Source: Amphiscolops sp. MND2022
Lineage: Eukaryota
Assembly (NCBI GenBank): GCA_964187785.1
Contig: OZ076409.1
Coordinates: forward strand, 29,824,001-29,888,000
DNA length: 64,000 nucleotides
Direction: 5' to 3'
The position numbers and the translations under genes were made by a program. Every line of letters begins with the position of its first letter. Positions within the stretch are counted from its first letter, which is position 1. Positions 25,345 to 48,585 of the stretch are shown one piece after another. The notes under the pieces were generated by a model. That model did not search any database. It was given only the letters and a program-made list of their open reading frames with translations, and was not told where the DNA came from.

Positions 25345-25692
25345 TTCCCCTCTCTACAATTGGTCGATGTTTGGCCAATGGGAATGTGATCTTTTCTGTT
25401 GTGACGGTTATTCCTACACTGGTCCAGTGTATGATGGACGGTTGACCGTTCCTGGCAAGTTTGTTTGTTGTGGTTGGTTATTGGCCGTAACGTCTGGATT
25501 TTTTGTTCTGACCGGTCTAGAGATCGTCTTCTCTCCCCTCCGTTTGTGCAGGTGGTTGATTCGGTGTTGTTTCCGAATTCAGTCTTCTTACGGTGTTTCC
25601 TGTAATCATGACAAATGGGATTATTATATCTAATAATTGGGTTGGTTTTTGTTAGTCTCTTCGACCTGCGTACGGGTTCTTTTTCTTCAGTG

Positions 25693-28197
25693 TCAATTTC
25701 TGTACTTAAGCTTAAGTTGCTTGCTAATTCTAAGTCGGAGTTTTCGAAGCTCTTTTTGAGTGTATGAATTAGTTTTGTTGTCAGTAAATACCTTACCGTT
25801 TTCGTCCCTGATCAAAAGCTCTTGGGCTGCTTGTTTAGCGTCTTCTATGGCACGGTCTACTTCCGTGTCCGTCACGTTCGTGGCGACTATCGTTAGAGCG
25901 CCAGGAGTATGCTGAGCTGTTGTTTGTGGTGAGCTTGTACTTTTTCGGTCGGGGACCAGTTTTGGTCTGCCTCTCCCGAAAGAGCCGCTGGTGGTTGTAG
26001 TCGTTGTTGGGTCTGGGATCTTTGGGCTCTCGGTGTCCATTAATGGCGTCTCGGACTCCCTTTCCGATTCTATCACCGTCGTCCGTTTTGGTTTGGATGG
26101 TGATCTGATAAATCGGCCGTCCGGTCCGCGTGGCCCAATTCCTCTGTTGTTCTGTTCCTGGTAAAATTTTGAAATGGGTTTACTTATCATTTTCCTATGA
26201 AGGATTCTCCCATTTGGTGTAGTTATGGTATGTTTTGTACCAGATACTGCTAATTGTGGTTTATCAGAATAAGCGCTTTCGAATTTATTACGTTGGTGTT
26301 TCTTTTCTAGGAATAGGAAGGGGTATTTACTTACTCCTTTTGCGTTTTTCTTCGGCTTCATTGGCAGCTGGTCAGACACACCGCCAGCTCCGTTGAATGA
26401 ATATACCTGCAAGGTATCTGGTTTTGCTGAAACGGAATGATTTGTTATCTCTTTTAAATTGTCTAATTTTAGTAAGTTACTTATTTCCGTGTTAGGCTTT
26501 CGGCCGTAATGTAGTTCAAACGCGGTTTTTTTCAAGCGAGAATGTGGTGTTTTTCTCATTACATCCAGCGATAAGTCCAGGGCCTTACTAAGACGTTCTC
26601 CGGCTTTGATGTTCGTTAACAGATTTTCTTTCAGTGTTCTGACCCCCCGTTCTACAAGGCCGGTGGGGGTATGGATATACGGTGTCCCGTATATTAATTT
26701 GATGTAATGTTCTTTGCAGAAGTTTCTAAATAGGCGTCCCGTAAAGGCTGTAGCTTTATCGGTTCTTATTGTTTTTGGTACCCCGTTCAGTTGAATGTAT
26801 TGCTCGAGAAATTTAATTGCCGTTTCGCCGTCGGTAGATGTACAGAAACTTGCCGCTGGCCATTTGCTGAATCGGTCCATGGACAATAAAATGTGAAGTC
26901 GACGGTTGTTTACCGTGATTGGTCCGATGAAATCCAGTTGGATTTCTTCGTTTGGATTGTCTAACCGGGGAAGATAATTTTTTTCCGTATTTGGTATGTT
27001 AGGTTTAATGTTCTTACCGGACATTTTGCAGTGGATGCATGACTCGCATTTCTTTTGGATAGCTTCTGTCATCTTTGGCCACCAAAAGTGTCTTGCCGCT
27101 GCTGTCATTTTGTTGATGGCGGGATGGCCCTTGTGAAGTGAGCTAATGATTGTAGTCCTGAGGTTTTGGGGGACAATAAATTTGTCTTCGATGAAGACCA
27201 GGTCGAATCTGGTTGATAGTTTCTTCTTGTGTGGTAAGTATTCGTCTGGAATTTGTTCATGTTGTTGGTGTTCCAGACAGACTAATGTCTTCAGCATTGT
27301 CGGGTCATTCGTGGTTTCGTTCATTAGTAGCTGTAGGTCTGTTGAGAAATTTCGTTCTGTTTCCCTTACAGCTTGTCCGAGGTCCCAGTTGTTTTCTTCC
27401 ATTGCCGCGACTTTTGGTGCATGTCCCATTTTAACATACTGCACGCTCCTTACCCCCACGTAGCGTGCCCAGTTGATTGCGGGGACTTCGAGTACTGACG
27501 GGTCTTGGTCCGTCTCTGATTCGATTTCGCCTTCTTCCATTGGCATGGGGGCGAAAAGTTCTTGTTGAGACGATGGGCCCGGTTGATTTGCGTGATTAAC
27601 CGGTGTGGGTCTGTCCATTTCCCAAAATGGATCGACGGTCCATTGTTCGGATCTTCCGAAGTTTGGTTGGTATCCTCCACTGTACTGTGGACCGATCCGT
27701 TGTCTCAGGTCGCCTTGTTCTCGTGCATTGATAATTTGTTGTAACCTTTCCTCGATTACTTTTCGCTCGTTGCGCAAAAATTTAGGTTCGTGGTATTTTT
27801 TCCACTTTCCACCGGTCATTCGGTAAATACCGGGTTTCACGATCTCCTTCCATCTCTGGATTAACTGGTTTGTTTCGGCGGAAAAGTCTACCGCCGCTAG
27901 GTTGTCAAGTGTTTTGACGTCCATTTTAAAGTTGCTGGTATTGTCGATTGATATAAGACGTGTTAACGCTGAGTTGTTTAGGCAATCAATGACGGTTTGT
28001 TTGTGTGTGTCTTGCGGCCGTGGTTTGTTGTTTGCTTTGTGCTCGTTTTCGACCGTTTCGCGTTCTGATTGGTTAGCGTGGTTGATAAGGCAACCGTGTT
28101 TGGAGATGAATTTGTAGTGCGGCATGATGCTATTGATGACGTATTCTTCGTCGTACGCTTCGTCCGTTTGCGGTGGCATTGACGGATTTCTACTCAA
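25693..28197 (-). CDS. pol: Pol C-terminal fragment: spacer + integrase
   Basis: HHCC (LHKGHP...CESCIHC) and DDE (LDFIGP, TDKATAF, GLVERG). Confidence 0.9.
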   Translation of the reverse strand: MSRNPSMPPQTDEAYDEEYVINSIMPHYKFISKHGCLINHANQSERETVENEHKANNKPRPQDTHKQTVIDCLNNSALTRLISIDNTSNFKMDVKTLDNLAAVDFSAETNQLIQRWKEIVKPGIYRMTGGKWKKYHEPKFLRNERKVIEERLQQIINAREQGDLRQRIGPQYSGGYQPNFGRSEQWTVDPFWEMDRPTPVNHANQPGPSSQQELFAPMPMEEGEIESETDQDPSVLEVPAINWARYVGVRSVQYVKMGHAPKVAAMEENNWDLGQAVRETERNFSTDLQLLMNETTNDPTMLKTLVCLEHQQHEQIPDEYLPHKKKLSTRFDLVFIEDKFIVPQNLRTTIISSLHKGHPAINKMTAAARHFWWPKMTEAIQKKCESCIHCKMSGKNIKPNIPNTEKNYLPRLDNPNEEIQLDFIGPITVNNRRLHILLSMDRFSKWPAASFCTSTDGETAIKFLEQYIQLNGVPKTIRTDKATAFTGRLFRNFCKEHYIKLIYGTPYIHTPTGLVERGVRTLKENLLTNIKAGERLSKALDLSLDVMRKTPHSRLKKTAFELHYGRKPNTEISNLLKLDNLKEITNHSVSAKPDTLQVYSFNGAGGVSDQLPMKPKKNAKGVSKYPFLFLEKKHQRNKFESAYSDKPQLAVSGTKHTITTPNGRILHRKMISKPISKFYQEQNNRGIGPRGPDGRFIRSPSKPKRTTVIESERESETPLMDTESPKIPDPTTTTTTSGSFGRGRPKLVPDRKSTSSPQTTAQHTPGALTIVATNVTDTEVDRAIEDAKQAAQELLIRDENGKVFTDNKTNSYTQKELRKLRLRISKQLKLKYRN

Positions 28198-30921
28198 ATA
28201 ATCCGTGAGTGCTAAGTGTTTACCGGCAATGAGATTTACGTTGATGGTGAAATGTGCTAACCGGTCCAGCCATCTAGTAAAGCGTGCGCTGTACGTCTTA
28301 TTGGATCGGTTTCTTTTAATTAATGGTTCTAATGCTTGGTGATCCGTGAGTAATTTAATCGGCTTACCGTAGATATATTATCGAAAGTGTTCTAATCCTC
28401 AAACTACGGCTAATAGCTCCAGTTCATTGATTGCGTATTTCTTTTCGGTGTCCGAAAGGAAACGACTGGCGAATCCGATCGGTTTTAACTTTCCGTCTGG
28501 TTGTTCTTGCCATAGGGTTGCCCCGAGGCCTTTTGTGCTTGCGTCGATTGTTATTATATTTGGGTAATCCGAATTGTAGTGGGCCAGACACGGTTTTTCC
28601 ATGATTTTTTGTTTGAGATTTTCAAAGGCCTGAGTGTGTTCTTCCGTCCATAGCCAGTCCTTGTCTTTCTTTAGAAGTTGTCTTAGACTGTCTGTTTGGG
28701 CAGAGGTTATCTATATATTTGGATAGATATTGAATGGCGCCTAAGAAGGATTTTAGTTCTTTTTCGTTGTTTGGTTGCTTCAAGTTTTTTATCGCCATTA
28801 ATTTATCTTGTAACGGTCTGATACCGTTTTGGTCAATTTTGTGGCCAATCCATTCGACTTCTGATTTGAAAAATTCGGATTTGTTTTCGCTGAGTCTGTA
28901 ACCGGCGTTTTCTAGTGGGGTTAATACTTCGGTTAATTCCTTCTTGTGTTGTTCCTTTGGTCCCTTTGTTACGATAATGATATCGTCCAACCATGCTGGA
29001 TGATTGTTTTCCAGTGTCTGGTCGATCCTTTCTTGGAATATGGTCGGTGTGTCCGCTAGACCGTAAAATCCCTTCAGGAATTGGTAGTAACCGGTGAAGT
29101 CACCCAAATTAGCTGACCGTAAGCGTAATCCAAGTCAAGTTTTGAGGCCCAGATTTCGTCCGTCGGACCATCCCCTATTTTTCTGGAGATTCTGGAAATG
29201 ACTTCTTCCATATTTGGCATTTGGGCTTTTCTTTTTATTGTGATTTCGTTAAGTTTTCGTGAGTCTAATGCGATCTTTACCGACTTGTCTTTTTTACTGT
29301 GATTACAGCCGGACTGACAAAGCAGTTTTCGTCGATGTTATTTGCTTTTTCTATGTGCCCCTGTTTTATGAGTTTGTTTATTTCTTTTCCAACCGATTGT
29401 TGTAAGTGAATCGGTATTGGTCTTCCCTTCTGCTGAATCAGTTTGGCGTCCTCTTTCAGCTGTATTTTCACTTCATTTCCGTTAACGGTATGATTCTCGT
29501 TAAAAAGTTTTCGAAATTTTCTCTTTAGGGTGGTTATATCTGGATCTTCGGTTTTTTGGTTTATTTGTGGACCGGTTTCACCGGTGTCCAGCTTAATACC
29601 TAGTTTTTCTATCCAGTCCAAGCCTACTAGAGGGTTGGTTTTCTTTGTGGTTATTAGTAGTTCAAGTTCGTTTCTTTTTCCGTTTATTTCTACTGATGCG
29701 GTCGTTTTTCCTTCGAATTTTATTCGGTTGTCGTTCATATCTCTGTATTCGGTTCCAATTGGTCTTAACGGTGTTATTCCGTTGAATTGTGATTTTGGAA
29801 TCAATGTGACCGGCGAGCCGCTGTCTAATATGAATTTGATTGGTCGGTTGTTCACCAATGCGGTGATTGTGAAGAAATCCGGACCATTCTTCTTGGTTTG
29901 GTGTGTTGAATGGACATTTTGATTTACTGAATGGATTGTGTTTGTTGACCAATTGTCATCTTCCGCGCTGCTTGCCTCGTCATCTTGTATATGGTTTATT
30001 CGTTTGTTTGTTCTGCAGTATTTGCGAAATGTCCATTTTTCTCGCATTTTGCACATTTCTTCCCTCTGGCTGGACATTCGTGTTGTCTTGTCCAGTTGGG
30101 TGCTCCGCATCTATTGCAGTCTATTTTCTTGAATTTTGTCGGTTTTTCCGACGGCTCTTTTATGTTTCTTGTTTTTCTTTTATGAGATATCTGATTTTCT
30201 TCTCTTCTTCTGTTTCTGGTGAGTCGTTCAATTCTTCGTACATGTATTCGTGTAATGCTTCTGTAATTGCTTCGACTGACATGTCACTTTTCCTGATCTT
30301 CTTTTTTAGATCATAGTCGCCCGTTGATTTTCCAATCACGGATAGGAATTTTGATGCCAGAAGTTCTGCCGCGGTTATTGTCTCGAATTCGCAGTTTTTT
30401 TCTACTTCTAGTATTCGTTTCCATACATCCGCCGCAGATTCTCCGTCTTCCTGTTTGAGGTCGAAAAAATCGGCTCTGCTGTGTTGGACGTTTCTTTCCG
30501 GTGTAAAATGTAGTCTGAACAATGTGTATAGTTTGTATAACGGTAGTGAGCTTGGTTCTTTCTCTAACCGTTTTGGTCATTTCTGTAATGGCGTTTTGGC
30601 CGCCGATTGCCCATAGGAATATATCTTTTATTTCCGTCTCCAACTGTTCGCGGTATTGTGGCAGTATTTCTTTGTTGTTCGTCATTTTTGAGAGGTCCAG
30701 GTCCTTAGTCATTTTTATGTACTGTACGAACTTCCGCCACCACATGTTTGCGTTGGTAAAATCTTGTTTTTCTAGTGTTGGGATGGTTAGTTTTTGTGTG
30801 CACGTCCGTTCACTGGTTCTGTTCAGCGTGTCGTTTGGCAACGGTTGATCGTTCGGGTGCGGTTCCGTTGACGTCCTGTTTGTAGCTCCATTTATTGGTG
30901 TGTTGACTGTATTGTCATCCA
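28198..30921 (-). pseudogene. pol: Frameshifted gag, protease, RT and RNase H
   Basis: FILDSGS protease; RT FQERID...WLDDIII; RNase H IDASTKGLGA...YAINELELLA. Several frameshifts. Confidence 0.88.
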
Positions 30922-30977
30922 TGTTTGGAGTTGGGTGCTTGTTCAATGGTAACTCTATGGTTACGCTGACTGCGCCA

Positions 30978-31190
30978 TGTTGTATCTCTATGGAATACTG
31001 GTTGAAAAGCAATGTTTGTATGAAATTCAACTATTCTTTAGATCTGTTCTTTTTGTACTAACACATATAAGAAAGAACATCATCTGCACTTATGTGGCAG
31101 GCAGGTACATACTATAAATAGTATCGAACAAAATAAATAGAAATGAGGCAGACTAATTAGTTTCTCAATTCAGTTCGTCTGTCCTCCACA
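30978..31190 (-). repeat. 5' LTR
   Basis: TGTGGAGG...CAACA on minus strand, followed by PBS. Confidence 0.9.
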
Positions 31191-32160: not shown

Positions 32161-32922
32161 ATATTTCAAACTTGTCCCCACCGATGTCCGATGTTCGCTG
32201 GTGGTTTGTGACGGAGTGCGTGCAATGCCAGCACCGGGACACTCAGCGCATGGTGGAATGATTTCTCAATCACAGCACTGTCTGTGGTGTACACAATCTG
32301 GATCTTGCTATCAAACCCATTTGAGTTTTCTTTCAACGTGAAATTACAACGATGTAACTTTGGAAATTAGTCAGTTGACAAACAAATAGCTACTCTCAAG
32401 TGTTGTGAAATTAACGTTAATTAATCGGAAAATCTTCACTCAGTATTATGAAAAAAAAAGGTTTTGTCAGATGGGAAGATTGTCCAGAACAACACATACT
32501 GGCTTAGCAAGCGGAAGGCGCGCAGTAAACCGACATGCCATCAAACCGAAAATTGAAAATCGACTCAAAAGCCGACACCAATTATCTGTTTGGTCCAAAA
32601 GTGTCCCTTCTAAGTTTGTAGTTCAAGCTTGAAGGAATTGTGCAGGTATTTTCACTAGCTATTATATCTACTGTCATAATGGTTGGGGAGCGGGAATAAC
32701 GTTTAAGAAATCTAAATGCAGAACGGGAATAGCGTCTAAAGCCAATTCATGTTCATTGCCTATGTTGAAACATTGAATTTTGGACGTCATTCCTTTAGAC
32801 GTTATTACTTAGGCATTTTTCGCGCTTCTACGGATTGTTGACTCGTCGGTTTAATAACTTATAACTCATAACCTCATTAACTTGCTGCACGACCTCCGTA
32901 GCATGCATGAGTCATTGGATGT

Positions 32923-33854
32923 TGTCAGAACGAGTCACGTTCGTGTTAATAACGGTGGTGAGACCGCTACATTCGGTCGTCGGTGCTGATATTTTCTCGG
33001 TAAGGGCTAACAAAATGTTTGTTAATTCGCTGATTTGTTTATTCATCTCCATGAAACGTTGATCAACGGAATTTGAACTAAAATTTTGTCTAACATTGAT
33101 TAAATCTCCATTCTCGAATTCATTCATCTGGTTTCTAGATAATGTGTTAGGAAAACTATATTCGCTTTCGTTGTCACTATTCTGTTCCATTCCGCTGGAA
33201 CATGCAGCATAACTATCTACGTTTTGAGATCTGGTATTGACCATCTTTGAATCTTCGAAAGGAATTGTTGTTTTTGAAGGTTTATTGATTTTAATAGGAA
33301 ATATGAATAATCAAGTTTCGACTAAATCAATGAGGTAAGCAACACTACGTTAGGCTGTGTAAAACTTCGTACTGATCATACTTCAACTCTTGTCGCAAAT
33401 TTCACTGCAGTTGGTCACGTGACCGCATTGGCCAATAGTATTGCGCTATTGATTAGGTGTTAATTGGTGCGTCCTGCTGGTAGCAACGTAAATGGTGTTT
33501 TGTACAAAAGGTAGCACCAATATGTTACCATGGTTACATGAATCATCTATCATTTGCGTTGGTTGATACAAATTGCGTCTATGATGGTGCACTACCAACG
33601 TTATATATGATACTACATTTTACTGATGAAATTAAATATGGTGAAAGCACTTGTACGAAGCGTGTAATGAGTAAATGATGTCAACGTTTACAATTCGTTT
33701 TTTATTTTAGGAAGTAATATTAATGATGGGATAGGCCCGTAATTGTTCAATGGTAATTTATGGTTATTGAAATATCAAGAGTGTTATATTTAACTGAGTT
33801 TTTTAAATGTTTAGATTGTTTTTTATCAGTTTCATTCATGCTTCCGGCATGACA
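32923..33854 (-). repeat. 3' LTR (932 bp)
   Basis: Copy of 47647-48573 with adjacent PPT and TSD. Confidence 0.95.
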
Positions 33855-34888
33855 CTCCCCCTCTTTAAAAGAAAAGGCGAAGTGTAGGGGTCTTTGGAAA
33901 TCTGGTAGCGGGAAGGTGAGGTAAATGTAGTAGCTTCACTTATGCAGTAAGTATTGGCTGTTTAATCTTCCTACGAGGGTGATTTGGCTGGTGTAGTGAC
34001 CTCAACTACTTTTGGTCTGTCCGTTACGGATGATGTCATAGCAACCACGTCGGTATTGATGAGTTGCATTGATGGCTTTGAGTACTCGGCTTGTTTGGGA
34101 CCAATTGTTACTTCGATTCGGTACAGCAATTGAGAGGAAGAGAATGAGTTTAGCGTAACGAGTGAACCACTTCGGTAAATAGTAATTGTAGAGTCGGTGT
34201 GGCGAGAGTAGCCACGTCATCCAATTGTGCGCTTCGTTTGTAGTGAGAGTTTAAGAAAGAATGAATTTGCCGGAAATTAGTTGAACGTGGCAGCGTGATA
34301 TAATTACTCGGCTCATTCGGTAACTGTTCGGAAGTAAATGTAGTGGAACATCGTACGCTTTGTCAACAAATCTTCGTCGGTGCTAAATACGAGAGTAGAA
34401 GTAAGCTTGGTTACGGTTGATTCAGTTATTGATTGAAGTTGTTATTATCCAGTTAGCGATATACCAGGTGGATGTGATTTGACTAGCGGTAAATCGGTTC
34501 AGTGAATGCTGTCTGCATCTAGGTTACTCTGCGTGAAAAAAACTCAATTGCAGCGTAGTAAGACTTCCGAATTTGGCATTTTGTTTTCTTGTTTTTCTCT
34601 TTTCCCCTTCTTTTCTTTAGTTTTGAGTAGGATCCTGCGATCTTTAGTTTTTCGAACGCAACCGTTCTTTGAGTTTGAATTTTTTCCCAATGAATTAATT
34701 TCGAGTAAATTCGGTTGAAATTTCTCTTTGTGATATTCCGGTGTCTTGTGAACGCGGAGGGTGTGGGTGATCAGACCACATCTCGTATTGTCAAAGACGC
34801 TGAAGCCTGGTAGATCGCGAATTCTACAGTTATAGATCCTTGTTGTCTCGTTCGCCATTGGTTGTTCGTGATTAATTCCATTACTTGG

Positions 34889-37800
34889 ATGTTATCCCCC
34901 GAGTTGTCTGAAGAAGAAGTTGCATCGATTGTGATAGCCGCGGAAGGCGCGCTAGCTGAGATGTCAAATTTGGAGCAATTGTCAGATGAAGAAGGTTTCC
35001 AAGCCTCAGTTGATACGTTGTTGGAGGGAGAGACACCATCTGTGTGCTGCCAGTTTGCTCAGCGTGTGACTTCGTCTAATGTAGAGGCTGCTACTACTTT
35101 GTTGGAGATAGCTCTCTCCAGTGAATTCCGTAAGTAAATCCGTAGTTATCGTTTTTCCTTCTTTTGGCTACTGAGACGGTCTTTCAACGTGTTTGTTGTT
35201 GTGTGCTTTGTAGTTAGGGCTAAACTCGTCAAGGTAATTGAAATGTTTGTTGCATTGGTATTTGTGTACTGTAGCTACCAACGTCTCGACTAAAAGGACT
35301 TCCCGGAAACTATTACCTTGGGTAGACTTCTGGGAATTGCTCATGGTTCTCATAGGTTAGATTGTACCATGTATGTTGCAGAATCTTTGAGTCTGACCGA
35401 TATCGTCGCCGCTCTACGACGAATGCTTCAACAGAATGAGCCTCCAGTAGTTGCATCTCCCGCGAGTGCCGTCGAGACTGGGCTCCGGAATTATGTATAC
35501 AGCCAAACTGGTAAGTCTGTTCGCTAACTGGTTCGTCATTGTAACGATGGTGTTATATGATCGTTACTGCTCCGTACGGCGTGTCGGTTATTTATGGTTG
35601 GCTTCGAGATGCACTCTCGTTTACACGATGTGTAGTACTCTGCGTTGTTATCTTTTGGGTGGGATGTTTCCAGGTACAGCGTTGGGTGACTTGTTAACTC
35701 TAGAGGACGTCGTTGCTGCTATCGCTCGACTGCAAAAGGAGTTGTCCGGCGTGGTTAAGACCACCATCGAATCCACTCTTGGTCAGCGCGGGACAGTTGG
35801 GGCAATGGCTGTGGATGAGTTTGTTGGTCAACTGACTGCAGCAGTTTCCCGTTTAGTCCCTGCTAGTGGCTTGAAAGCAACCGTGCCTCGGGAGGATGCC
35901 CCCCTCAGATCGTCATCATCATCTGTGGGTGTTGCGCCAGTTGAAGGTGATGATCAAAAAGACTTGTCGGTCGTAAGCCGGACGGCATCGCTAGTTCCTT
36001 CCATTTTTGGAGAGGGAACCGTAGCAGGATCCTCCAGTGCAGGGAAAGTGGCTGCTGCTAAACCTGGTAAGAATCTCAAAAAGATCATGGGCGGGGTTTT
36101 AGTGAACAATAATGTTAAGATTATCAAGAGACAAGACTAGATATATATGTTTTTTTTGTTTTTGTTTTTTTGTGTATATGTATATGGGACTATTTAACGC
36201 GTTGTGTGTTTGCGTTCTAGCTCGTGCTCGGAAGATCAAGACGCTCAAGCCGTCTTACTTTGTTTCTGGCGTCGTGGGGACCTTCGTTGGGTTCCCCCGG
36301 AACAAGCGGGTGATTGACGGTTACGCTCGATGTTTACTTTGTCGTGCGGATTTGAGCATTGCAGGACGTGGTCTGTCGTCGTTATGGGATCACTGGAAAG
36401 GAGTTGAACACACCCGATTGGAGCAAAAGTACAGGATTATGACACACAGGCCATTGCTGGACAAGTCTTGCAGACTAGTATCTGCAGAAGAAGATAGACG
36501 GATCAGACGTGCTCGTCTGACCAAACCGCCGGTCTTTCTAGAGTCTGCGCTGAAGTTAACTGTGGAGGAGCGAATAGCTATTGAGGAGGCAGAGGCTGAA
36601 GAAGGCGCGCGTCCGCAATTGCAGGACGAAAGTGTGAATTAATTGTGGTTGAGTAATTTCGTCTCAAGTTTTCTGACTGTGACGTCCTTTGATGGGGTGC
36701 TCCGGTCACTGGACTCATGGAGGGACTGTATGGCCAACGAACTTCGTTTTGAGTGCCGTACTCTGACCTACTCTCGTTGTCAGGTAAAAATCAGATTTTG
36801 CTGTCATTATTAAGTTGTACTGGCTACTTAGGTAACTTGCTAGTCAGGTGGTTGTTATCGGTGCATTGTAACGCTTTTCGGGTACGGGTGTTGTGTTTGC
36901 TTACGTTTTTCGGTAATTTTATTAATTTGTTTGATTCTGTTTAGAGTCTCGTGCTGTATGGCTTTTACCAGTATGAAATTGAGCAGTTGGACGCACTGGT
37001 TGCAGCAAGCTCTTGCATCGGCGTTTGCATCCGTCAGTGCGATTGGCGGTGGTGTGGTGAGCTTCACATCGTTGGCGCCCATGGCATAACTTCAGTGGTC
37101 TTGGCGCTTGTTTCCGGTGGAACTGGGTGGGAGAAGCGGCTATTGAACAACGTCATCCCAGTTCTTGCGTGTCTCAAAGACAGAACTCAATTGAAGACGA
37201 TTGCGGTGGAAGGTGATGTACATGTTGGGCGGGCGTTGGCTGCAGTGGTATCGCCTAAGACTCCTCTCGTGGTGGGGTTGATTACGCAGCGGTCAGTGTT
37301 CAACGAGGTACAAAAACAGTTTCTCGCAGAGTTCGCGGGTCTAGATCCTCTCAGTGTCCTGGAATACTTTCGTGTGAGGCTGATGTCCGTTGCTCAAGAG
37401 GGTTTCTTAGACCGTTTGCCGTTATTGCAGCGGGTTAGTAAAAAAACCCTTTTTTTGTTTTTTTTTCTTTTTTTGTGTGTGTGGGTCATGGCATTTGCGT
37501 AGGTTTTCGATTGTTTGGCTCTGGTAACAAGGTAGATCGTGTTCTTGTTTTGTAGTATATTCGACTTGGTGGAGATGACGTGTCCCAACTTGCACTGGTT
37601 TGCGCAGAAGTGGTGGACTATTGGAATGATTTGGCGCTGTACTTTGGTACTCATAGACCGGGAGTGACGTCGGAACTGCGTCCGATTACTCCTCTAGAAA
37701 GTCAGGTGTTCGAGGATGCACTGATTCGGCCTCGTTTTGCTGTTCTGCGCTTAGTGCTAGATTTGAGTGAGTATGGGTTTATATGCCGTTGATCGGATAC

Positions 37801-39291
37801 TCATTTGATTACACGTGTAGCTGTAATTTTGTATGTTGAATATGGTCCAAAATTAGGTTAAGTGGGGACGTATGAAGCTAAAGTTTCGCGTGTACAGTTT
37901 GGTGTGTAACCCATTGGTGTTGGGTTTTAGTGGTTAAGCACTGCCCTAGTTTGTGTAGACGTGGACGCGATGATGGCATTGTCTCGGAACGGGAACTGGC
38001 TCACCTTTTGCGTGGACTAATGAAGTTTATCTATCCGGCTCACAGTATTCCAGCGGAGTACGATATCGCTGCCTTGTTGAAAAATGTGGACCGGGAGTAT
38101 GCCGACGTAGACTCTAAGATGTACAGATTACATTTCGGGCAGTACTTCCGTTTTGACATCAGCACTCAACTGCCTTTCTTTTACAAATCTGTCCAGAAAA
38201 TGTTAGTCGGTATATGTCGTGGACTGAGCGGATTGTGGCAGCGTACGTGGCCCCAGCATTTGAGCTTGACTCCATTTGATCCGGTTCTCATTCATAGTGG
38301 GTCGGATGATCGCTGTGTCGACTCCTTAGTAGCAACTTGTGCTGTGTTGACTGCTCATGGGCTTGTGGGACTAGATGATGGCGGAGTAGTTCAGCAACAA
38401 TATCGCGAAGTCACCCAATTTTTCAAGAGACGCTGGACCTCTACTGCGGAAGAACTACCAGTAGTGGAGGACATTTTCGCGTTGTGGATGTCGTATCCTC
38501 ACTGGGAGCGATGCGAACAATTGCGGCAGGTCATCGATCTGGCTTTCAGTGCAGTGGCCACTAGATCGTACCGGGCGGATTTTGTGGATGACGTCGGCGG
38601 AGCTTTGGATCCTGATGAACTGGCTTCAAGTGTGCATTTCGTCCGGAGTTGGTTCAGTCAGTCTTTTGTGGGGAGATCGCGTCGTCAACTACGTGGTTTG
38701 TTGCGTGTCATTGAGACAACTGACATGCAAGTGTCTCGCTTAAACGATAGCGTTCGCGCTAAACCGTGGGATCAACTCCTCAAAGTCGGACTGGATCAAA
38801 CGTTGTCCTTGTGTGTATCCGTGTTGGACAATGGTCCTGATACTGCAGTCTTTCCGGTGGTGGATGAGTATCGTTCGACAGTACTTGCGCAGTTGAACGT
38901 TATGGCGGTAATGGCAACGAGCCCTACCCGTGTAGCGACGGGTTCTAAAGCGACGCCATCCAGTACAGACGCGAAATCCAAACGGCCCCGCAGTCAGTCT
39001 GATGTAAAGTTGAAGACTTCCAAGAAGACGCCTAACGTGGCTACGGTTGGAACCTCTAAATCTACTGGGCGAACGAGAGGCGTTGTGGTCAGTCGACGAG
39101 GTCTTAGTGCAGCGGTGAAGTCTGGAAAAGGACGGCGAACTGGCGGGAAACCGCATGCATCTAAGAGACTTGTATTATCTACGGCGGCAAGTGAGGCTTC
39201 AGATCATGGTAGTCAATCGTCCAGTGACGATGTGCCACTGTCTACTACTAAGCGGACGAAGCAGGTCATCCGTGATTCACCGGATGAATAG
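34889..39291 (+). CDS. 7-exon antisense gene, ~1128 aa, degenerate hAT-transposase-like protein with BED-like zinc finger; one premature TAA at 36640
   Basis: Exons 34889-35129, 35382-35510, 35674-36066, 36221-36783, 36945-37433, 37556-37766, 37931-39291. All six introns are GT-AG with matching phases (1,1,1,0,0,1); summed length 3387 nt = 1129 codons. Zinc finger ARCLLCRADLSIAGRGLSSLWDHWKGVEH. Confidence 0.8.
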
Positions 39292-41431
39292 TTGTGAACT
39301 AGACATGCTGTTGAGCGTGTATTTGTCAGTTTGTCGTTTGCTAAAATGATTTGTACCTTCTTGAATGTTTTGCTTCTGAAAGTGTAGTTTGTATATTTTT
39401 TTTGTTGATTTATCGCAGGAGCGTTTTTATGTGTATCGGGAGTCACAAGGTGCTAGTTGCGTTATCCGGTAACCTCCTTTCCTACTTGTTGAACTAGTGG
39501 TTATTTTAGAACGTTGAGCTTGTTTTTCAGTTTTCATTTCGATGATTTTTGTTTATTTCTGCATACTTGTTGTGTTGTTCTTTTTTCATGATTTGTAGTA
39601 TTCAGTTGTTGTTGGTCCATGACCTTTGACTAAGTTTTGTTTTACTTCCAATGACCTTAGTACAGTTGAATTTACATGTTGCCTACGTTATACAAATTTT
39701 TTACCCTAATTTGCATGTAAACTTAGGTAGCTGGTTTCAAAATGTTGGAGCGATAGACTCAGCTTTGCAAGTCATTCAAGTTCTAGTAGAGTAGTCGCCG
39801 AGGTAACTACCATTGAAAAGCTCTCACTCACCAAGTGCCATCCTCGTGTCAGCGTTGTTCATGATTATAGCTTACATATGACAGAGATGGAAACTTGGTG
39901 GGTGGGTGGAGTCGCTCAACTCCTACAGATGATCTGAACTTTTGAGTAGCTGCTTTTATAGTGCTCTAGTTGGTTATTTGACAGGTGTTTACTAACTTAG
40001 GTGTCATTCTAATCTGTCAGTTCATGTCGAGTTTTACCTATATTCATTTCTCATGTAGCGTTATTCTTGACGTCGTCATCGTTGATGTGTGTCATGCGAC
40101 GTCATCACTCGTGTCGTGTGTCGAGTGTTAACGTCAATCTTAATGGTAGATGGGTTTCCCCATAGCCATTAAACTTTTTGACAAGGGATGGTGAGTTCCA
40201 TCCCTTGTTACGAATTTTCGGTGATGTAGTGATTGAGCCTGCATGTTTTTTGTTGTTCTGTCCTTCCCGCCGCGAGGCGAAGCCTACGCATCAACAGTAG
40301 GAACGAAAGTGTCATGGCCTGAATTCGATGCAAAGATGACGACTGCATTTTACTGTCCTAGGAAAAGTTTTATATGTTGTTCATTGGATTGGGAAGGTTA
40401 TTTGCCGTCGCAAAAACCCATACAAAACTAACACCGAATCCACTTGCTAAAGAGCAAGCTTCATCTGAATGTTTGTACAACCACACAGACGCGCATTTGA
40501 CGACGCACCCACACAGCCGAACCACATCATGATTTCCTGAGCGGAAGTGCGGGACTAGATTTTGGCGGCGTAACTTAACTAAGGCAGCTATCTCTTTTGC
40601 ATGTTCGATTGTGTGCTGTTACTTTTGCTAATTTTGGTTTATTACTGTCGTCATAAGGTTGGTAAGTACAGAATTGTAAAGCAATTCCTTTGAAAGTGTG
40701 TGGTTGGGATTTTCTGTGAATTGCATAAATTAGCAACTCATTTGCATGTGTTTTACATGTACTTAATAATTTCCTGTTAACGTGATGTGGTGTGTATGAC
40801 TGCATTGCATGTATTTACATTTGCGCTCAGCTGTCTCGGTAGAGAGTAACAATATACTCTGCCGGTAAACTCAAGTATGTTGGACAGTAAGTATCAGTCG
40901 TCACTGAATGGCGTAAAGTAATCCAAACAATTTAAAGGTATGATTGATGCATGTGGTGATGTCAACTACATTCAATTAATTGCATGTACATTTTTTCTTT
41001 ATTTACGGTGAAAATGACGTAGTATGTGTGGCAGCGTTAGGTGTTTCTTTTCGTTCATACTGCTGGTGTAATAGGGTGAGGCGTTGAATAACACGTAGCG
41101 ACGCAGTGTGTGGAACTGCGTAACGGCTTTCTCGCCTGTTGTTCGTTAGCCGGTTAAGGGCGGAAATATGCTCTGGCCGGTAATTTTGAAAACTGATGAC
41201 AGTGAGTGTTAGGCGTTATTTATGGTATCATTCAGTATTGTTTTTTCTTTGTGTCTACTTGATTTAATTTACATGTATGTGTTACGAGATTCTCTTTTTT
41301 GTTTTTTTTTGTAGAGGGTGTAGGACATTCCCATTTAATTTTTGCATGTGATATCACTTCTCGTGCCGATACGAGGCGAAGCCTACGAGTTGTCAGCAGG
41401 AGAGAACACAGATTTTATGTTTGCATGCATT

Positions 41432-44400
41432 TTAGTCGGTGGATTTGTCTTGCATGAATTTTAGCAGAGCCGGTTTGACTCGGAGTTCGTGAACTAAGAA
41501 GTTCTGGTAGATTTTCGGTTGCAGTTCGGTTCGGAGGTTGTACCGTGTTGCGTTGTTACGCGACGTTGTGTGGTCATGCTCATTATGAACTGTCGTTGTA
41601 TGTTCAGTCACAGGTTCGTTTGTTTCAGTATCTGGTTCGTTGTTGGTGTCGTAATGAACAACTGAATTGTCAGGCGGTTGTTCGCAGGTTTCAGGTGAGC
41701 TCTCAGGAATTGGTTGCGTCAGCGTATGATCGTTCAATTTCCGTACATGCTCATAATAGATAATGCCGTGTTCATTATTGATTTCTTCTTGATCGGTTGT
41801 TTTCGGTGCCGGTTCCGCATACAAATGCTGAGGCATGTGGTCATTGAAGAGCGCTTGATCATCGGCCGCATCTGGGTCAGCGAACAAGCGATTTGAGTCT
41901 TCTTCAATGTCCGGTATTGGTGCGTTCGGTGTGAAAGGACGTAGTCGCATCCTATGCACGCACTGTGTTCGGAAGGTTCCGACCTTCCTGATTATGTAGT
42001 TAAAGTTTGTCAGTACTTTAATTACTTCGAAGGGACCTTCCCATTTGAAATCATGGAAGTTAATCTTGTCGGACTGCGTGGTGAGTTTAGGATTAAGCAT
42101 AATTGTGTAGTCGTTGACCTTCAATGGTAACGCTTGGGCTTTACGGTCGTAGTACTTTTTGTACTTGTGGTATGCTTGCAGTATGTTATCATTGACTTGT
42201 TGGTATTTGCCGTTCACCTGGTCAACTAATCTTTTGATATCAGTTTCCGTGGTTTCACATTTCAGAGGGTTACCGAATTTGAGGTCTAACGCGTTAAACG
42301 GAACTCTGCCGTGGAAGACTTCGCTCGGAGTGCACTTGAGTGATTGATGGTAAGTTGTGTTATAAGCCATTACTGCAAGATTAACTTACCTGTCTCATTG
42401 GGGGGAGTCGACGGAAATGTTAATCTTCAGAATTTGTTTCAGTCTTTGGTGGGAACGCTCCACCATCCCTATGGTTTGGGCATGCTTTACAGTAGCGTGA
42501 TCGATTTTGATTCCGGCAGTTTTCATGATTTCGGTCATGATGTTGGATGTGAAAGCCGTGCCTTTGTCGGTGATAATTGTCTTCGGGACGTAGGCGTGTT
42601 GGGTGAATATTTGCATGAGCGCTTTTACAACCGAGTTAGTGTCTGGTTTCCGTATAGGTACAGCGAACAAATACCGTGAGAAGTAGTCGCACGCCGTCAG
42701 GATAAGCGTATATCCGTTTGAGTTAGGTAGTTCACCTACTAAATCGATTTCCAGTACGTCTTCCGGGCCGTTACAGGGGTCGTAGATTTTTTCCAGAGGA
42801 GGCATTAGTCGTCTTGGGTTAACAGGTTTTGCTTTGATGCACTCAATACAATTACTTACGTACTTTGACACGTGTTCACTCAGGCTTGGTATGTAGTAAC
42901 GCTTGCGGAGTTCTACCAACATTTTTGATGCCCCAGGGTGTCCCTGCATGGGGTCGCCATGCATTGTCCTGATTATGGGCATGGTAGTTTCTGGAGGTAC
43001 TACGATTTGTTTAAGTAGAATTCCGCCAGTGTTATCAAAATGTTCCTGTAGAGTACCTTGTTGACTACTTCAAGTCTTTTTTTGTTTTTTACCAGTTTTT
43101 GAAAAAAGGAGCTAGTAAAGTTAACGTGGTTTGGTAGTGGTTCGTCGTCCACTAAAACGCGGACCATTTTTAGGACGTCTTAGTTACCTAACTGATCTTG
43201 GACGATTTGTGAATCCCCTTGCGGGCATACCTGATTTACCGGGTTAAGGTGGTGACGTCTGGTAAACCTCGTCAGTATGATGGAAGGGGTGTCTCCTGCC
43301 AGAACAGGTTCGAGGTGTCGGCTGATGATCTGAATCATCTTGAGACATTCGTCGTCATGTGTTTGAAGGTTGTTCGCCATTGAGTTTAGTAGAGTCCGCA
43401 TCTTGGTGAAGTCGTCTGCTGGACCGGTGGTTTCAGACTGGTGTGTAGTGGGTATCGCTGCATCGGGTTGTTGTTGGTCTGGGTCGTAGTCTTCTTCGTC
43501 CTCGTCCTGTTTTGGGGTTTTGGCCGCAAGATCTATTTCGATGTGGTGGACTGGAATCTGGTCATTCAATTTCAAGTGAATTCTGTCTTCAGGGTTAATG
43601 TCTAATCGAGACAGGTAATCCGCCGCTGGGTTCTCGACTCCAGGGACGTGGGCGAGAACAAAGTCAAATTGAAGTGCTTGGTCACAATGGTTCCATAGTT
43701 TGGGTGGTATTCGTTTCGAATGGAAGAAGCGGGTCAGGGCCTTGTTATCTGTCATCACAATTGTGGGTTTTTTGACACCCCACAGTATGTGAGCAAATTC
43801 GTCGAAGGCGAAGTGCATTGCGAGGAATTCTTTAGCATACATGGTCAATGACATTTGACCTTCCGTGAATCGTTGTGAGCCGAATGCTACAGGGGCGTAC
43901 GTCTTCTTCTGTCCATCATTGGCTTCGGTGTAGTCCTCAATGAGGAGCACGTACCCTGCTGCGTGTTCACTCGCATCGCACATGATGACCAGTTGTTTGT
44001 CTGGTAGTGGTAGTCGCAGAGATAGTTTTGCAGCTCGTACCAGGTTCTGATTAATATCAAAAATTGCGTCCTTGTGAACCTGCGTCAGGGTGAACTTGAT
44101 GTCTTTCTGTAGTAGTTTGTACAGAGGAACAAGTTTTTCTGCTAACATCGGTATGTACTGTCTGTAGAATTGTACGAATCCGATGTAGCGTTGTAGTGAT
44201 TTGACTGACGTTGGTGTTTTCAGGTTGTTGAGGAATTTGTCGATCTTGTCCTCAAGTGGCGCAATCCCTTTGGTAGTGATGCTTCTACCTAAGAACTCGA
44301 TCTTCGGGTGACCAAAGGCGCATTTTGACATCAACAGCTTTAGACCTGCCTTCTGAATCTGCTGGAAAACTGCTTCGATGTTAATTATCAGTTCGTCCAC

Positions 44401-46382
44401 ATTGTTGGCAGCGATCCCAATGTCGTCGACGTTTTGGGCACATTTGTCTGCTTTTACCAGTGCATCTAAGTACTCTCGAATTGTACTGTTGAATGCAGAC
44501 AAAGACCTATTCAACCCTTGCGCGAGTCGGAGGTAAGCAAAGGTTCTGCTGCCAAAATTGAATGCCAGAAATTGTATTGATTGTTCGTCGGCCATTTGGA
44601 GACAGTGGTAAGCTTGCGAACAGTCAAGCTTGCAAAAGTACCTTTTGCCAGCCATATGCTGGGCTGCATCGGCAATGATCGTTACTGGGTGGTTGTGGTT
44701 GTTGTAGTCATTTTTGAGGAGGTGGTTGATCCGCCTCAAATCGACTAATATCCGAAGTTTCCCGTTAGGTTTTCGTTGTGCGAAAATTGGGGAGGAATAT
44801 TTACTGTATGGTAACGTCGTGATGATCCCGTACTCCTGCATCAGTGCGAGTTCGACCAGCAGATCATCTTTCAGATTGGTTGGAGTAGGTAGACTCTGGG
44901 CGTACACGGGATCATCGTGTTTTGGGGTCAGCTTGATCCTGAAATCGGTGTTGATGCCGATATCAAGACGATGTCGAGCAAATATCGTGTGCTATTTGAC
45001 GAGCAGTTCTTCGATCCTCTGTTGCTCGTGCTCAGTGAGGATCGAGTCGTCCCAGCTGAAAATTTTGAGGAATGTTTGGCGTTGTTCGTCATCGCATGTC
45101 GGGTTGAGTTTTTCAGCTTTTCGGAGTTTGATGAGTTCGTCGTAGATACGTCTTTCTATTTTATTCAGCTTGTCAGGATCGTCACATGTTTCGGGCGTCG
45201 GGTACCATCTTTTATCATTTGTGGCGCTTGGATCCTGGAACAGTTGGTTGATCACATTAGCCGCTTCATCAGGGAATTTAGTGATCAACGCCAGCTGCTC
45301 GTTGGTCATTGGCTGGATGTTTCTGGCTTGGTTTGGCGTAAGTATTCGGAAGACTGCGATTGTACTGCTCTGAGGTATTGTAACTGCGTGGTCCATGTGG
45401 TTGGTAATTTGGACGTGTGTCTGTTGGTCCTTGATTTCAGACATTGATGGTGACACTAGCAATTCGGTTTTTCGTTCAAAGGCTGAGAACGCCTCTATTG
45501 TGCCTGTCACTATTCCGATGTCCTTGTCCGTTGTAACAGTCACAAATATTTGTTGTCCCGGCGAGATGGTTGTTTTTTGGGTTGTTCTGAGTTCCAACAT
45601 CTGCAGTTTGAATTTCCCGTTTGGCGGTTTTAGTTGGAGGGTTATTTCTGGGAATCGTACAATGTTATTTGCAAGGTCTAGCGTGACAGAGTATTTTTTT
45701 AAAGAACGACATTCCGATGAGGATGTTTCCCATTGTTGGTAGGATCATGAATGTTGTTTCCCCCAATGAAAAATCGAAGAAGCACTTGTTTTCTCACCGG
45801 AACGATATTTCCGTTGGCTATTTGGACTTTGAAGTCCGGTGCTGGATATTCTTCCAACTGGGCTGCTGGGTGGGCTTGTAGGATTCGACGTAGCTCGTTT
45901 TCAGACATCGCGCTCTGGATGGCACCAGTGTCCTGTAGCCCTTGATTTTCATACTCACGGAATTGAAGAGGGACGTAGAGCATCTTGTTTCTTCTGTCTA
46001 ACTGGAGTGTAGCGCTTAATGGTCTGATGTTTGTTGGCTTCGGTTGGTGCCCCTGTTTGGTATTGTCATCCAGTTCATTCGGTTTTTGTTGTGGGTTTCT
46101 AGTTCTGGTCGGGTTGACCCTCTCGCGTTGGTGTGGCCTGGCTGCAGTCTCTTTCGGAATGCAGCCCTTCGTTGTACAATTGGGGTTGTCGTCTATGAGA
46201 GGGAGTATGTGGTAGTTATTTGTCGAGACTTTGCGTACATAGTATTTTGTTGATAGTTTAGTCTGTTTATCAGGACGCTGCCAACATCCTGTCGTTGTAG
46301 TTTTCGAGTAGTAGTGAGTTGGAGTTGGTTTTTTGTTGCGCGCACTTTCTGTTTGGTTGGACTGAGGATGACGTGGCATCAC
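41432..46382 (-). pseudogene. pol: pol (PR-RT-RH-IN) with a few stops/frameshifts
   Basis: DTGA protease; RT KLDCSQAYH...NVDDIG; RNase H CDASEHAAG; IN HHCC (MHGDPMQGHPG...CIEC), IDLVG/TDKG/VER, and WEGPF GPY/F motif. Confidence 0.92.
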
Positions 46383-47914
46383 AAGTTTTTTGAATTCGTA
46401 TCGTATTCATCGTTGTAGTCCATGTCGTAGCAGTCGTTGGTTTCTTCTGGTTGGGTGGTCTGGCTTGTCGCTTGCGTGACTTGGTAGGTTGGTTGGTAGT
46501 TGTTTTGTGACTGTTTGAATTCACGGCGGAACTCTCGGTTTTCTTTGGTGTATTGTTTGTCATATGGTACATTTCGGTAAGCCGATGCTCCTGGTACCCT
46601 GTCTCTGCAATCCCGTGCTGAATGTCCGATCCTGCCACAAATTTGGCATACTAATTTGGAGTTGTATCGTGGTTTTTCGGTTTCTTGTTGTTGGGCATTG
46701 TTGTTTCCAGGTTGGGGAAGTTGTTGTGATTTCTTCGTTATTCCGTTGGCTTCGTCCCTGAGGCGTTTACGGCATTCAATCCACTTGTGGCCTAGTATGT
46801 TGCAGTATCTGCAATTTCCTTCGAATCTTCGTTTGACTTCTCTTGTTGGGTTCTTCTCGGTGTTGTTTGGGTTGTGGGCTGGCTGAGCGTTGTTTTGCTT
46901 TGGTTGGTAGTTGTAGACCTGGTTAAGTGGCTGCATATCCGAGGTGCCGGGGAGCAGTTGTGCATATTGGCAACGGCGTTGTACAAACGTCTTGATTTCT
47001 TCAACCTTGGCATCGTGTTTGCCTGCCATGGCAAGTTCATTCTGAATCTGGATTGGTAGTTTGGCAAACAAGAATGTTTCGGCTATGTCATTGGCTTTAT
47101 CTCCGTATGCTTGTTTGGCAAGTTTCTTGTATCTAGTTAGGAAATCAGCAAATGATTCTTTTGTGGGGTCATACCTCATCTGATCGAATTTGTACTTCGA
47201 TACTTCTTTGAGGTCTTCTTTCGCATACTCCTTGGTGAAAGCTTGCAGGACGTCTTGGAGTGTCGTTTCTGTCGTGATTTTTAGTGTTTGCCAGAATTCT
47301 ATGGCTTCGTCTCTAAGCAGGCTTTGAAAATAGTTTAGCTTCTGCTCTTCTGTTACTTTGTTCATGTGTGGGCGGAGGTGGTTCTTCAGTAGGTGTTCGA
47401 ATTCGTTGTACTTCTCTCGGTTTCCGCGGAAGAGAGGTACTTGAGTTTGGAGGATTTTGGGCTGTATTACTCCGTCGGTCATTGTTGTTCGTAGGTTGTG
47501 TATTTCGGTCAATACATCATCCATCTGAGGTTCATTGGTGGGTGGTGCACGATCTCTGTTTTGGTGAGTTGCAGGGTTTGGGAGGGTTCTGCGTGGTTGT
47601 TGGATATTTGGAGTCGGATTTGGGTTCGTGGAGACTCCTGTCACCATGTCAGAACGAGTCACGTTCGTGTTAATAACGGTGGTGAGACCGCTACATTCGG
47701 TCGTCGGTGCTGATATTTTCTCGGTAAGGGCTAACACAATGTTTGTTAATTCGCTGATTTGTTTATTCATCTCCATGAAACGTTGATCAACGGAATTTGA
47801 ACTAGAATTTTGTCTAACATTGATTAAATCTCCATTCTCGAATTCATTCATCTGGTTTCTAGATATTGTGTTAGGAAAACTATATTCGCTTTCGTTGTCA
47901 CTATTCTGTTCCAT
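46379..47914 (-). CDS. gag: Gag (511 aa), begins inside the 5' LTR
   Basis: Two CCHC knuckles (CRYCNILGHKWIEC, CQICGRIGHSARDC). Open frame runs through the LTR end and PBS. Confidence 0.92.
   Translation of the reverse strand: MEQNSDNESEYSFPNTISRNQMNEFENGDLINVRQNSSSNSVDQRFMEMNKQISELTNIVLALTEKISAPTTECSGLTTVINTNVTRSDMVTGVSTNPNPTPNIQQPRRTLPNPATHQNRDRAPPTNEPQMDDVLTEIHNLRTTMTDGVIQPKILQTQVPLFRGNREKYNEFEHLLKNHLRPHMNKVTEEQKLNYFQSLLRDEAIEFWQTLKITTETTLQDVLQAFTKEYAKEDLKEVSKYKFDQMRYDPTKESFADFLTRYKKLAKQAYGDKANDIAETFLFAKLPIQIQNELAMAGKHDAKVEEIKTFVQRRCQYAQLLPGTSDMQPLNQVYNYQPKQNNAQPAHNPNNTEKNPTREVKRRFEGNCRYCNILGHKWIECRKRLRDEANGITKKSQQLPQPGNNNAQQQETEKPRYNSKLVCQICGRIGHSARDCRDRVPGASAYRNVPYDKQYTKENREFRREFKQSQNNYQPTYQVTQATSQTTQPEETNDCYDMDYNDEYDTNSKNL
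46385..46391 (-). promoter_or_regulatory. Putative -1 ribosomal frameshift slippery site A-AAA-AAC
   Basis: In gag frame (TCA AAA AAC TTG TGA). The -1 frame continues into the pol ORF (LVMPRHP). Confidence 0.7.
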
Positions 47915-48573
47915 TCCACTGGAACATGCAGCTATCTACGTTTTGAGATCTGGTATTGACCATCTTTGAATCTTCGAAAGGAATTGTTGTTTTTGAAGGT
48001 TTATTGATTTTAATAGGAAATATGAATAGTCAAGTTTCGACTAAATCAATGACGTAAGCAACACTACGTTAGGCTGTGTAAAACTTCGTACTGATGATAC
48101 TTCAACTCTTGTCGCAAATTTCACTGCAGTTGGTCACGTGACCGCATTGGCCAATAGTAGTGCGCTATTGATTAGGTGTTAATTGGTGCGTCCTGCTGGT
48201 AGCAACGTAAATGGTGTTTTGTACAAAAGGTAGCACCAATATGTTACCATGGTTACATGAATCATCTATCATTTGCGTTGGTTGATACAAATTGCGTCTA
48301 TGATGGTGCACTACCAACGTTATATATGATACTACATTTTACTGATGAAATTAAATATGGTGAAAGCACTTGTACGAAGCGTGTAATGAGTAAATGATGT
48401 CAACGTTTACAATTCGTTTTTTATTTTAGGAAGTAATAATAATGATGGGATAGGCCCGTCATTGTTCAATGGTAATTTATGGTTATTGAAATATCAAGAG
48501 TATTATCTTTAACTGAGTTTTTTAAATGTTTAGATTGTTTTTTATCAGTTTCATTCATGCTTCCGGCATGACA
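47647..48573 (-). repeat. 5' LTR (927 bp)
   Basis: Copy of 32923-33854 with a 5-bp deletion; PBS adjacent. Confidence 0.95.
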
Positions 48574-48585
48574 GATGTGATAATA

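Follow-up and report, generated by a model that had tools for sequence, protein, structure and literature searches.

An antisense, intron-containing gene of probable hAT transposase origin carried by a clade of Gypsy retrotransposons in Amphiscolops

Introduction

How can a retrotransposon carry an intron-rich gene through repeated rounds of reverse transcription, where would such a gene come from, and what would it do for its carrier? These questions are raised by a seven-exon gene in a 64,000-nucleotide stretch of DNA (the window) from Amphiscolops sp. MND2022 (assembly GCA_964187785.1, contig OZ076409.1, positions 29,824,001 to 29,888,000). The gene lies antisense within a Gypsy long terminal repeat (LTR) retrotransposon. 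An earlier reading of the letters (the original prediction) took it to be apparently a domesticated hAT transposase that lacks catalytic residues and is carried inside a young retrotransposon. Here the structure, distribution, conservation and probable origin of the gene are described, and the functions proposed for it are weighed.

Structure of the Antisense Gene and Its Host Element

The Gypsy element occupies positions 32923-48573 on the minus strand (15.65 kb), has TG..CA ends, and is bounded by a 5-bp target-site duplication (TSD) (Table 1). Its two LTRs are identical at 915/932 positions. Pfam matches follow the Gypsy order of gag, reverse transcriptase (RT), RNase H, and integrase (zf-CCHC, RVT_1, RT_RNaseH, Integrase_H2C2, and rve), while the protease is recognized by eye from its motif and has no Pfam match. 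No env open reading frame (ORF) was seen in the element, and the window copy is defective, with pol broken by frameshifts.

The gene is read from the plus strand, with the integrase on one side and the 3′ LTR on the other. Its seven exons are separated by six GT-AG introns, each 122-252 nt long, and connect in frame into 1129 codons including the terminal stop (1128 residues); the window copy has a single internal stop, a TAA in exon 4. The layout first described places a seven-exon gene on the opposite strand, flanked by pol and the 3′ LTR within an element bounded by a TSD, and the exon coordinates, LTRs, and TSD found here agree with it. The in-frame joins, codon count, and single TAA were all reproduced, and the protein motifs quoted at the time are present in the translation. 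Two alternative acceptors of intron 6, at 37897 and 37958, lack conservation among copies and were therefore rejected, whereas the acceptor at 37930 is kept in 37/37. The N-terminus encoded by exon 1 is acidic: its net charge lies between -5 and -17 in 12 loci, and between -10 and -17 in those 10 that were read from the first Met. At the other end, the RTG[GE]xP motif (39133-39153) is kept in 27/29 loci whose basic tails are otherwise variable. The motif resembles the histone H3 tail near K9-K14 and may be a mimic of that tail or a nucleolar signal.

The strand composition of the gene was said to match that of the element, and this holds at third codon positions, where the gene (plus strand, G 0.30 and T 0.31) mirrors RT (minus strand, C 0.33 and A 0.28). 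This mirrored bias argues for long residence in the retroelement.

Distribution across the Gypsy Clade

The original prediction was right that the gene is real but underestimated its scale, since the gene is found clade-wide and is shuffled among clade members. An exon-7 DNA search of the genome was followed up by scoring the best 40 of 149 candidates and reading 39 other copies at 10 kb each, and all 39 adjoin an LTR or integrase of the element. Among the best 40 integrase-end matches, 39 carry the gene at the expected place: 29 belong to the exon-7 DNA set (window copy included), 5 have listed accessory matches, and 5 were read and hold exon 7. The remaining match has an accessory match 22 kb away. 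Of the best 150 RT matches (86-100% identity), 141 are followed within 10.5 kb downstream by an accessory match on the opposite strand, two have such a match at 17-23 kb, and seven have none among the matches listed, from which the accessory coordinates were picked by eye. Fixation of the gene in the LTR family, as anticipated, is borne out by these counts, and the internal TAA is private to the window copy, being present in 0/35 copies that cover position 36640.

Protein searches extend the family to many subfamilies, exon 7 giving 912 candidates and exon 4 giving 5243. The gene is antisense in 27/27 divergent loci, where it adjoins the integrase, an LTR ORF, or both, and 0/66 gene loci read at 10 kb lie outside a Gypsy context. 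Some subfamilies are very young, with 13 matches of identical score and many elements whose pol frames are open over 1603 residues. The gene is a trait of a whole, recently active clade.

Two database relatives of exon 7, P0086 and P0149, are just 25-30% identical to anything in this genome, which suggests that the gene also exists in other organisms or in much older lineages. An exon-7 protein search for longer proteins and an exon-4 alignment search returned nothing or only close family members, and no relative was found in scans of viral and metagenome contigs. A match on a bacterial contig (L156, 6131-8981) was rejected as due to chance; its ORFs, which by eye we take to be Argonaute-like next to SIR2-like, are unrelated to the gene.

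Selection and Splice-Site Conservation

The gene is real and under selection, a conclusion about which we have almost no doubt. Variants common to at least three copies comprise 313 synonymous and 122 nonsynonymous changes, a nonsynonymous to synonymous ratio (pN/pS) of 0.13, whereas singleton variants comprise 353 and 796, a ratio of 0.74 (shared vs. singleton, Fisher p 5e-50); these ratios are crude counts and not codon models, and the shared variants mostly reflect replicating lineages. They agree with the purifying selection expected of a functional gene. By part, the shared-variant ratio is 0.04 for exon 4 and 0.24-0.29 for exons 2-3 and the tail, and it is 0.25 for the integrase C-terminal tail. 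Frameshift-size indels present in at least three copies number 2 in the exons, a compensating pair, vs. 21 in the introns. Only 2/39 copies covered at ≥98% are unbroken (no stops, frameshifts, or broken splice sites), and the lesions are mostly private, as expected because copies decay after insertion.

The start codon is kept in 34/34 of the other copies that cover it, and only 4 broken dinucleotides were counted over 12 splice sites in 34-37 copies. Across the 27 divergent loci, GT or AG stands at the predicted codon and phase (offset 0) in 197/207 mapped sites, counted over eight of the 12 junction ends. The acceptor of intron 2 is at its predicted place in 23/26 loci and the donor of intron 3, which lies in a variable linker that maps poorly, in 13/26. 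Paralogues that keep the splice positions have diverged to as little as 30% identity in exon 5. In 10 distant loci, introns 4-6 show 0.36-0.59 identity to those of the window, which is saturated, and yet they remain 97-219 nt long and retain GT..AG. The lengths of exons 4-6 are identical in 14 spliced copies from all lineages. From conservation of this kind, it is strongly inferred that the introns are spliced from the transcript. In the young-subfamily locus L141 (3685-5055), intron 4 is in frame and free of stops, so that exon 4, intron 4, and exon 5 form a read-through of 457 codons.

This record leaves little room for the view that the gene is a functionless nested insertion or transduced passenger, which we regard as scarcely credible: the rarity of unbroken copies would fit it, but lesions are private and shared changes synonymous, the lengths of exons 4-6 are constant in spliced copies from all lineages, no convincing inverted repeats bracket the gene (see below), and the low pN/pS together with splice sites conserved across saturated introns already reject it.

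Origin of the Protein

The finger of exon 4 is the most constrained part of the protein. Both of its Cys residues and its first His are invariant in 16/16 rows, the second His is present in at least 90%, and the region keeps 76-99% identity even between lineages whose exon 5 has dropped to 30%. The exon-5 structure model has a predicted local distance difference test score (pLDDT) of 76-86 over residues 11-100. In Foldseek, this model places chains of the Hermes hAT transposase at ranks 1-9 (best E 1.6e-4, three at E < 0.001), so that the RNase H-like hAT fold proposed for the protein was recovered for exon 5. A second structure comparison of exon 5 gives its longest alignments to Hermes, up to 145 residues from chain residue 152. 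A spliced profile of exons 4-7 also aligns with the Ac-type hATs of this genome, collinearly over positions 28-647, pairing the finger, strand 1, xHF, DxA, RW, LDP, YP, and ERxFS.

Other results are less clear-cut, and sequence support for a hAT origin is weak. In the second structure comparison, ISCth4, which we take to be a mutator-type transposase, equals Hermes in Z. The zf-BED match of exon 4 in Pfam (E 0.035, 14.6 bits) lies below the cut-off of 20.6, just 1/13 family members matches zf-BED (E 0.058), and the Atlas matches for the finger, zf-BED and zf-C2H2_12 at 0.81-0.83, are leads only, as are all Atlas matches (<0.9). By hhalign, there is no significant match to Tip100-type hATs, and exon 7 alone gives none. 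When exon profiles were compared with 128 hAT proteins by hmmsearch, only one BED match rose above the reversed controls, and Pfam and PDB profile searches found no hAT domain, the PF05699 dimerisation domain being without a Pfam match. The exon-7 model has a pLDDT of 41, and fold searches with it carry no information. The proposed derivation is thus supported for exon 5 by the Hermes-first fold and weakly by the collinear profile, but it was not confirmed for the dimerisation-like region of exon 7, whose likeness to the hAT C-terminal region is in motifs only. On balance, these models and alignments make a hAT origin of the gene likely.

Catalytic positions, assigned through alignment to the hATs of this genome, are poorly kept. 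The strand-1 Asp is present in 6/20 rows; few rows have the second Asp, and 7/22 other rows carry a Glu where ERxF would place it. No lineage examined has all of D, D, and E, and a CxxH after strand 5 is absent in 20/20 rows. The catalytic residues have thus been lost in every lineage examined, in line with the original description of a protein without catalytic residues or CxxH. Equally as described, no hAT terminal inverted repeats (TIRs) were seen around the gene: of 168 inverted repeats, the 25 longest include no convincing pair that brackets it, and its flanks are shared Gypsy sequence. No hAT ends, next to which an 8-bp TSD could be sought, were definable around the gene. The genome holds 2215 hAT candidates; no free donor was found among the 39 hAT loci read, and the own-genome matches listed were filled by accessory copies.

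Exchange of the Accessory Cassette

The accessory gene and the integrase tail have partly separate histories. Their identities correlate with a rho of 0.49 in 25/66 loci (the rest have too little integrase sequence), and in trees of 20 of those 25, a well-supported accessory clade, chosen post hoc, is rejected on the integrase tree (approximately unbiased test, p-AU 2e-12). These comparisons indicate that the cassette is shuffled among clade members. Exons 5-7 are 30-45% identical where RT is 86-89% identical, a several-fold faster divergence. In loci L091-L108, the accessory gene, spacer, integrase tail, and LTR each have different nearest relatives, and frequent recombination among subfamilies therefore seems to occur; between L093 and L099, the accessory gene is 64% and the integrase tail 95% identical.

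Rearranged copies are also seen. Exon 6 is duplicated in L090 (4556-5827), exons 5-6 are mostly deleted in L142 (5294-5513), and one of the 27 divergent loci keeps exon 7 alone. In L145 (7803-7925), a second LTR ORF directly follows the gene, which suggests a derivative that has no pol and retains the accessory gene.

Conserved Non-coding Blocks and Possible Function

Three non-coding blocks recur in the divergent loci (Table 1). The first is CpG-rich, sits 500-700 nt upstream of the ATG, and contains CACGTCATC and CCGGAA, which we take to be ATF/CREB-like and ETS-like sites. The second, B1, shows a covariation term of only -0.26 kcal/mol, and a structured RNA is thus unsupported; being almost without covariation, B1 resembles a DNA site more than it does an RNA stem. 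Since the BED domain of Hermes binds quasi-palindromic subterminal repeats (PMC10368747), the tandem pair in B1, which ranks among the best-conserved non-coding parts of these elements, is the first candidate for a binding site of the BED protein.

In the account that we favor, an ancestor of the Gypsy clade would have gained a hAT gene head-to-head with gag-pol, most simply by a nested insertion whose hAT ends were later lost. Because the gene is antisense to the packaged genomic RNA, that RNA would read the introns backwards, and they would outlast each round of reverse transcription, consistent with the intron conservation observed. Transcription of the gene would probably start at a promoter of its own near 34167-34392, and the transcript would be spliced and translated. 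The protein has lost the catalytic residues but retains the BED finger, its most constrained part; the acidic N-terminus, the RNase H-like scaffold, and the basic tail are also kept. As an oligomer, it may bind repeated motifs within its own element, B1 being the candidate, and could there activate or de-repress transcription of cognate copies in trans, as does TnpA of Spm.

That the protein binds DNA and regulates the element that encodes it, either by activation or by anti-silencing, seems to us about as likely as not. In the full account, a class I clade would have domesticated a hAT transposase, an enzyme of class II, and made of it a spliced factor without catalytic activity that controls transcription or counters silencing in a sequence-specific manner. 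Antisense orientation would keep its six introns, the factor would bind the element's own palindromic repeats and might use an H3-like tail motif, and its exchange among subfamilies as a cassette would underlie clade expansion; we propose this tentatively, as a whole slightly more open to doubt than to belief. One version of it is weakened by base composition. CpG observed/expected is 0.86-1.26 across the main regions of the element, with no depletion, and singleton transitions affect 129/516 CpG sites vs. 324/1602 others (1.24-fold, p 0.02). There is little methylation-driven decay in these elements, and because it is almost nil, anti-silencing by DNA demethylation in the manner of VANC loses ground.

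Alternative Explanations

The dead transposase might instead work at integration, tethering the cDNA/integrase complex to chromatin or to motifs, or aiding nuclear import. Functions of this kind are discussed for antisense ORFs (PMC7264820), and both the BED finger and the basic tail with its widely kept RTG[GE]xP would fit a protein that binds chromatin or aids import. If the protein were a close partner of the integrase, the two should be inherited together, whereas the gene tree is decoupled from the integrase C-terminus, with the reservation that the rejected group was chosen post hoc; a candidate promoter of its own and an acidic, activator-like N-terminus also speak against this role, which we consider unlikely.

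Counter-defence is another proposal. The protein would bind a host silencing factor of the piRNA or chromatin pathways, or serve as a decoy or dominant-negative against hAT-family proteins, without binding the element's DNA. Exons 5-7 that diverge so fast and are swapped among elements recall an arms race, and the genome is rich in hATs, but shared variation is strongly purifying, no diversifying selection is visible in the counts, and the most conserved part is the DNA-binding finger. This, too, is improbable in our view.

The gene might also be selected but come from elsewhere, either from a mutator-type or other DDE transposase or from a host gene domesticated from one. The sequence similarity to hATs is marginal, ISCth4 ties with Hermes in Z, the six introns could stem from a host gene, and no free donor was found among the 39 hAT loci read. 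Against such a source stand the hAT order of features, in which a BED-like finger is followed by the Hermes-first fold and by collinear LDP, YP, and ERxFS-position motifs, and the absence of the gene outside Gypsy elements in the 66 loci; we think it quite improbable.

Other Features of the Element and the Window

The positions of all features are collected in Table 1. The gag frame starts within the LTR and crosses the primer binding site (32912-33250 and 47647-47935, minus strand). Its LTR part of about 110 codons is 37-92% conserved in divergent subfamilies, and in the window copy, the 5′ LTR has a 5-bp deletion within this part. A region of 250 residues between the protease motif and RT (44992-45744, minus strand) has no Pfam match and is possibly a degenerate dUTPase-like domain, a domain that sits between protease and RT in other elements (PMC6431247). 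No Rfam match was found within the element.

Pieces of another Gypsy family, whose RT is about 25% identical, lie at 24000-31030 and 59000-63000, with a gag segment duplicated 5.85 kb apart; a profile search of the window gave no accessory-gene match in them. Long direct repeats at 12209-14128 and 18967-20927, 6.8 kb apart, enclose a gag-like ORF (14535-15299) and probably represent another LTR element on the plus strand. Also in the window are a tandem array with a 38-bp unit and a pair of structures with long inverted repeats resembling miniature inverted-repeat transposable elements (10557-11483; 49205-49989; 8525-9975), as well as long A/C-rich ORFs of 871 and 278 residues at 530-4852 on the plus strand.

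Table 1. Features of the Gypsy element and its antisense gene, in window coordinates.
Feature	Position	Strand	Remarks
TSD GATGT, left copy	32918-32922		right copy 48574-48578
3′ LTR	32923-33854	-	932 bp; holds 5′ end of gag ORF
Polypurine tract	33855-33866	-	
Candidate promoter of antisense gene	34167-34392	+	CpG-rich, non-coding; 17-19/27 divergent loci; CpG observed/expected 1.66
Exon 1	34889-35129	+	ATG; acidic N-terminus
Exon 2	35382-35510	+	
Exon 3	35674-36066	+	first half conserved, then variable Ser-rich linker
Exon 4	36221-36783	+	BED-like CxxC..H..H finger at 36331-36411; most conserved exon; private TAA 36640-36642
Exon 5	36945-37433	+	RNase H-like core (helix, b1-b2-b3, helix, b4, helix, b5)
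Exon 6	37556-37766	+	helical, invariant Trp; putative start of insertion domain
Exon 7	37931-39291	+	helical region with FDP and W..YP.W motifs; basic Ser/Thr-rich tail; stop 39289-39291
Block B1	40057-40123		two tandem imperfect palindromes of ~29 bp, CpG-rich; up to 25/27 divergent loci
Block B2	40370-40520		conserved non-coding; 23-26/27 divergent loci
pol	41432-46406	-	protease-like motif, RT, RNase H, integrase; frameshifted pieces
gag	46382-47935	-	zinc knuckle; frame begins inside 5′ LTR, reads through primer binding site
Primer binding site	47630-47646	-	
5′ LTR	47647-48573	-	927 bp

Relation to Known Systems

Maize Grande (gene23), rice RIRE2, Silene Retand (TRP28/PF04195), and Botrytis Boty carry accessory ORFs on the antisense strand, placed after pol and before the 3′ LTR, and the origin and function of these ORFs are described as unresolved (PMC7264820; PMC11963269). 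According to the former source, they show no similarity to other transposons, an origin from an inserted transposon lacks support, and antisense and spliced transcripts deserve examination (PMC7264820). The gene described here resembles these ORFs (aORF-3R) in position, in orientation, in its near-universal presence in copies, and in being conserved like a core gene. They have an antisense promoter of their own, as shown for Grande, and are suspected nuclear DNA-binding regulators; the counterpart of the promoter here is a candidate block. They are described as ORFs, without mention of introns in the accessible sections of PMC11963269, whereas the present gene has six introns, 1128 residues, and a traceable BED and RNase H transposase architecture. 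Pfam searches of the gene gave no match to PF04195.

Hermes and the Ac-type and Tip100-type hATs of this genome are the obvious comparison for the protein, which shares with hAT transposases a BED-like finger, an RNase H-like core closest to Hermes, and collinear downstream motifs. Unlike them, it has no DDE triad, CxxH, or TIRs, has gained a 255-residue N-terminus and a basic tail, and travels as retrotransposon cargo. Vertebrate ZBED genes are presumably hAT genes domesticated by the host. DAYSLEEPER/SLEEPER is likewise a hAT transposase that has become a probable DNA-binding protein (PMC3499209). What differs from such host-domesticated genes is the domesticator, here a multi-copy retrotransposon and not the cell.

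Transposases can act as sequence-specific intrinsic activators, and TnpA is transposase-derived (bioRxiv 10.64898/2026.08.24.746577); the terms "retrotransposon" and "LTR" are absent from the main text of that source as accessible. With TnpA of Spm/CACTA and VANC of Mutator (PMC13547354), the present gene shares the character of an accessory factor encoded by the element beside conserved tandem motifs. Those factors belong to DNA transposons in methylated plant genomes, and TnpA comes from the element's own transposase, whereas here the donor would be of another class and CpG decay is nearly nil. HTLV-1 also has an antisense regulatory gene near its 3′ LTR, HBZ (PMC11963269). The two proteins are unrelated, and the present one is encoded by a six-intron, apparently transposase-derived gene in an element without a visible env ORF. 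HBZ, for its part, is a bZIP protein. Among other captured ORFs, no comparable case was met in the accessible sections of PMC13547354, PMC12859917, PMC12440569, PMC6431247, and PMC6338049, and no account of an antisense gene of an LTR element that is both spliced and derived from a transposase turned up in a literature search that left most subscription papers, supplements, and Repbase outside its reach. Antisense accessory genes as such are already known; specialists would be surprised by the probable cross-class transposase origin and by the retention of introns.

Significance

The origin and function of antisense accessory genes in LTR elements is a recognized open problem, for which this clade offers a case of probable transposon derivation that can be traced, and across classes. 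A retroelement is seen to carry an intron-rich gene stably, contrary to the usual removal of introns by retrotransposition. The function of the gene is directly testable, since copies number in the hundreds, young subfamilies are nearly identical, the DNA-binding domain is defined, and there is a candidate motif for it to target. In Amphiscolops, one kind of mobile element may have turned the enzyme of another into a helper.

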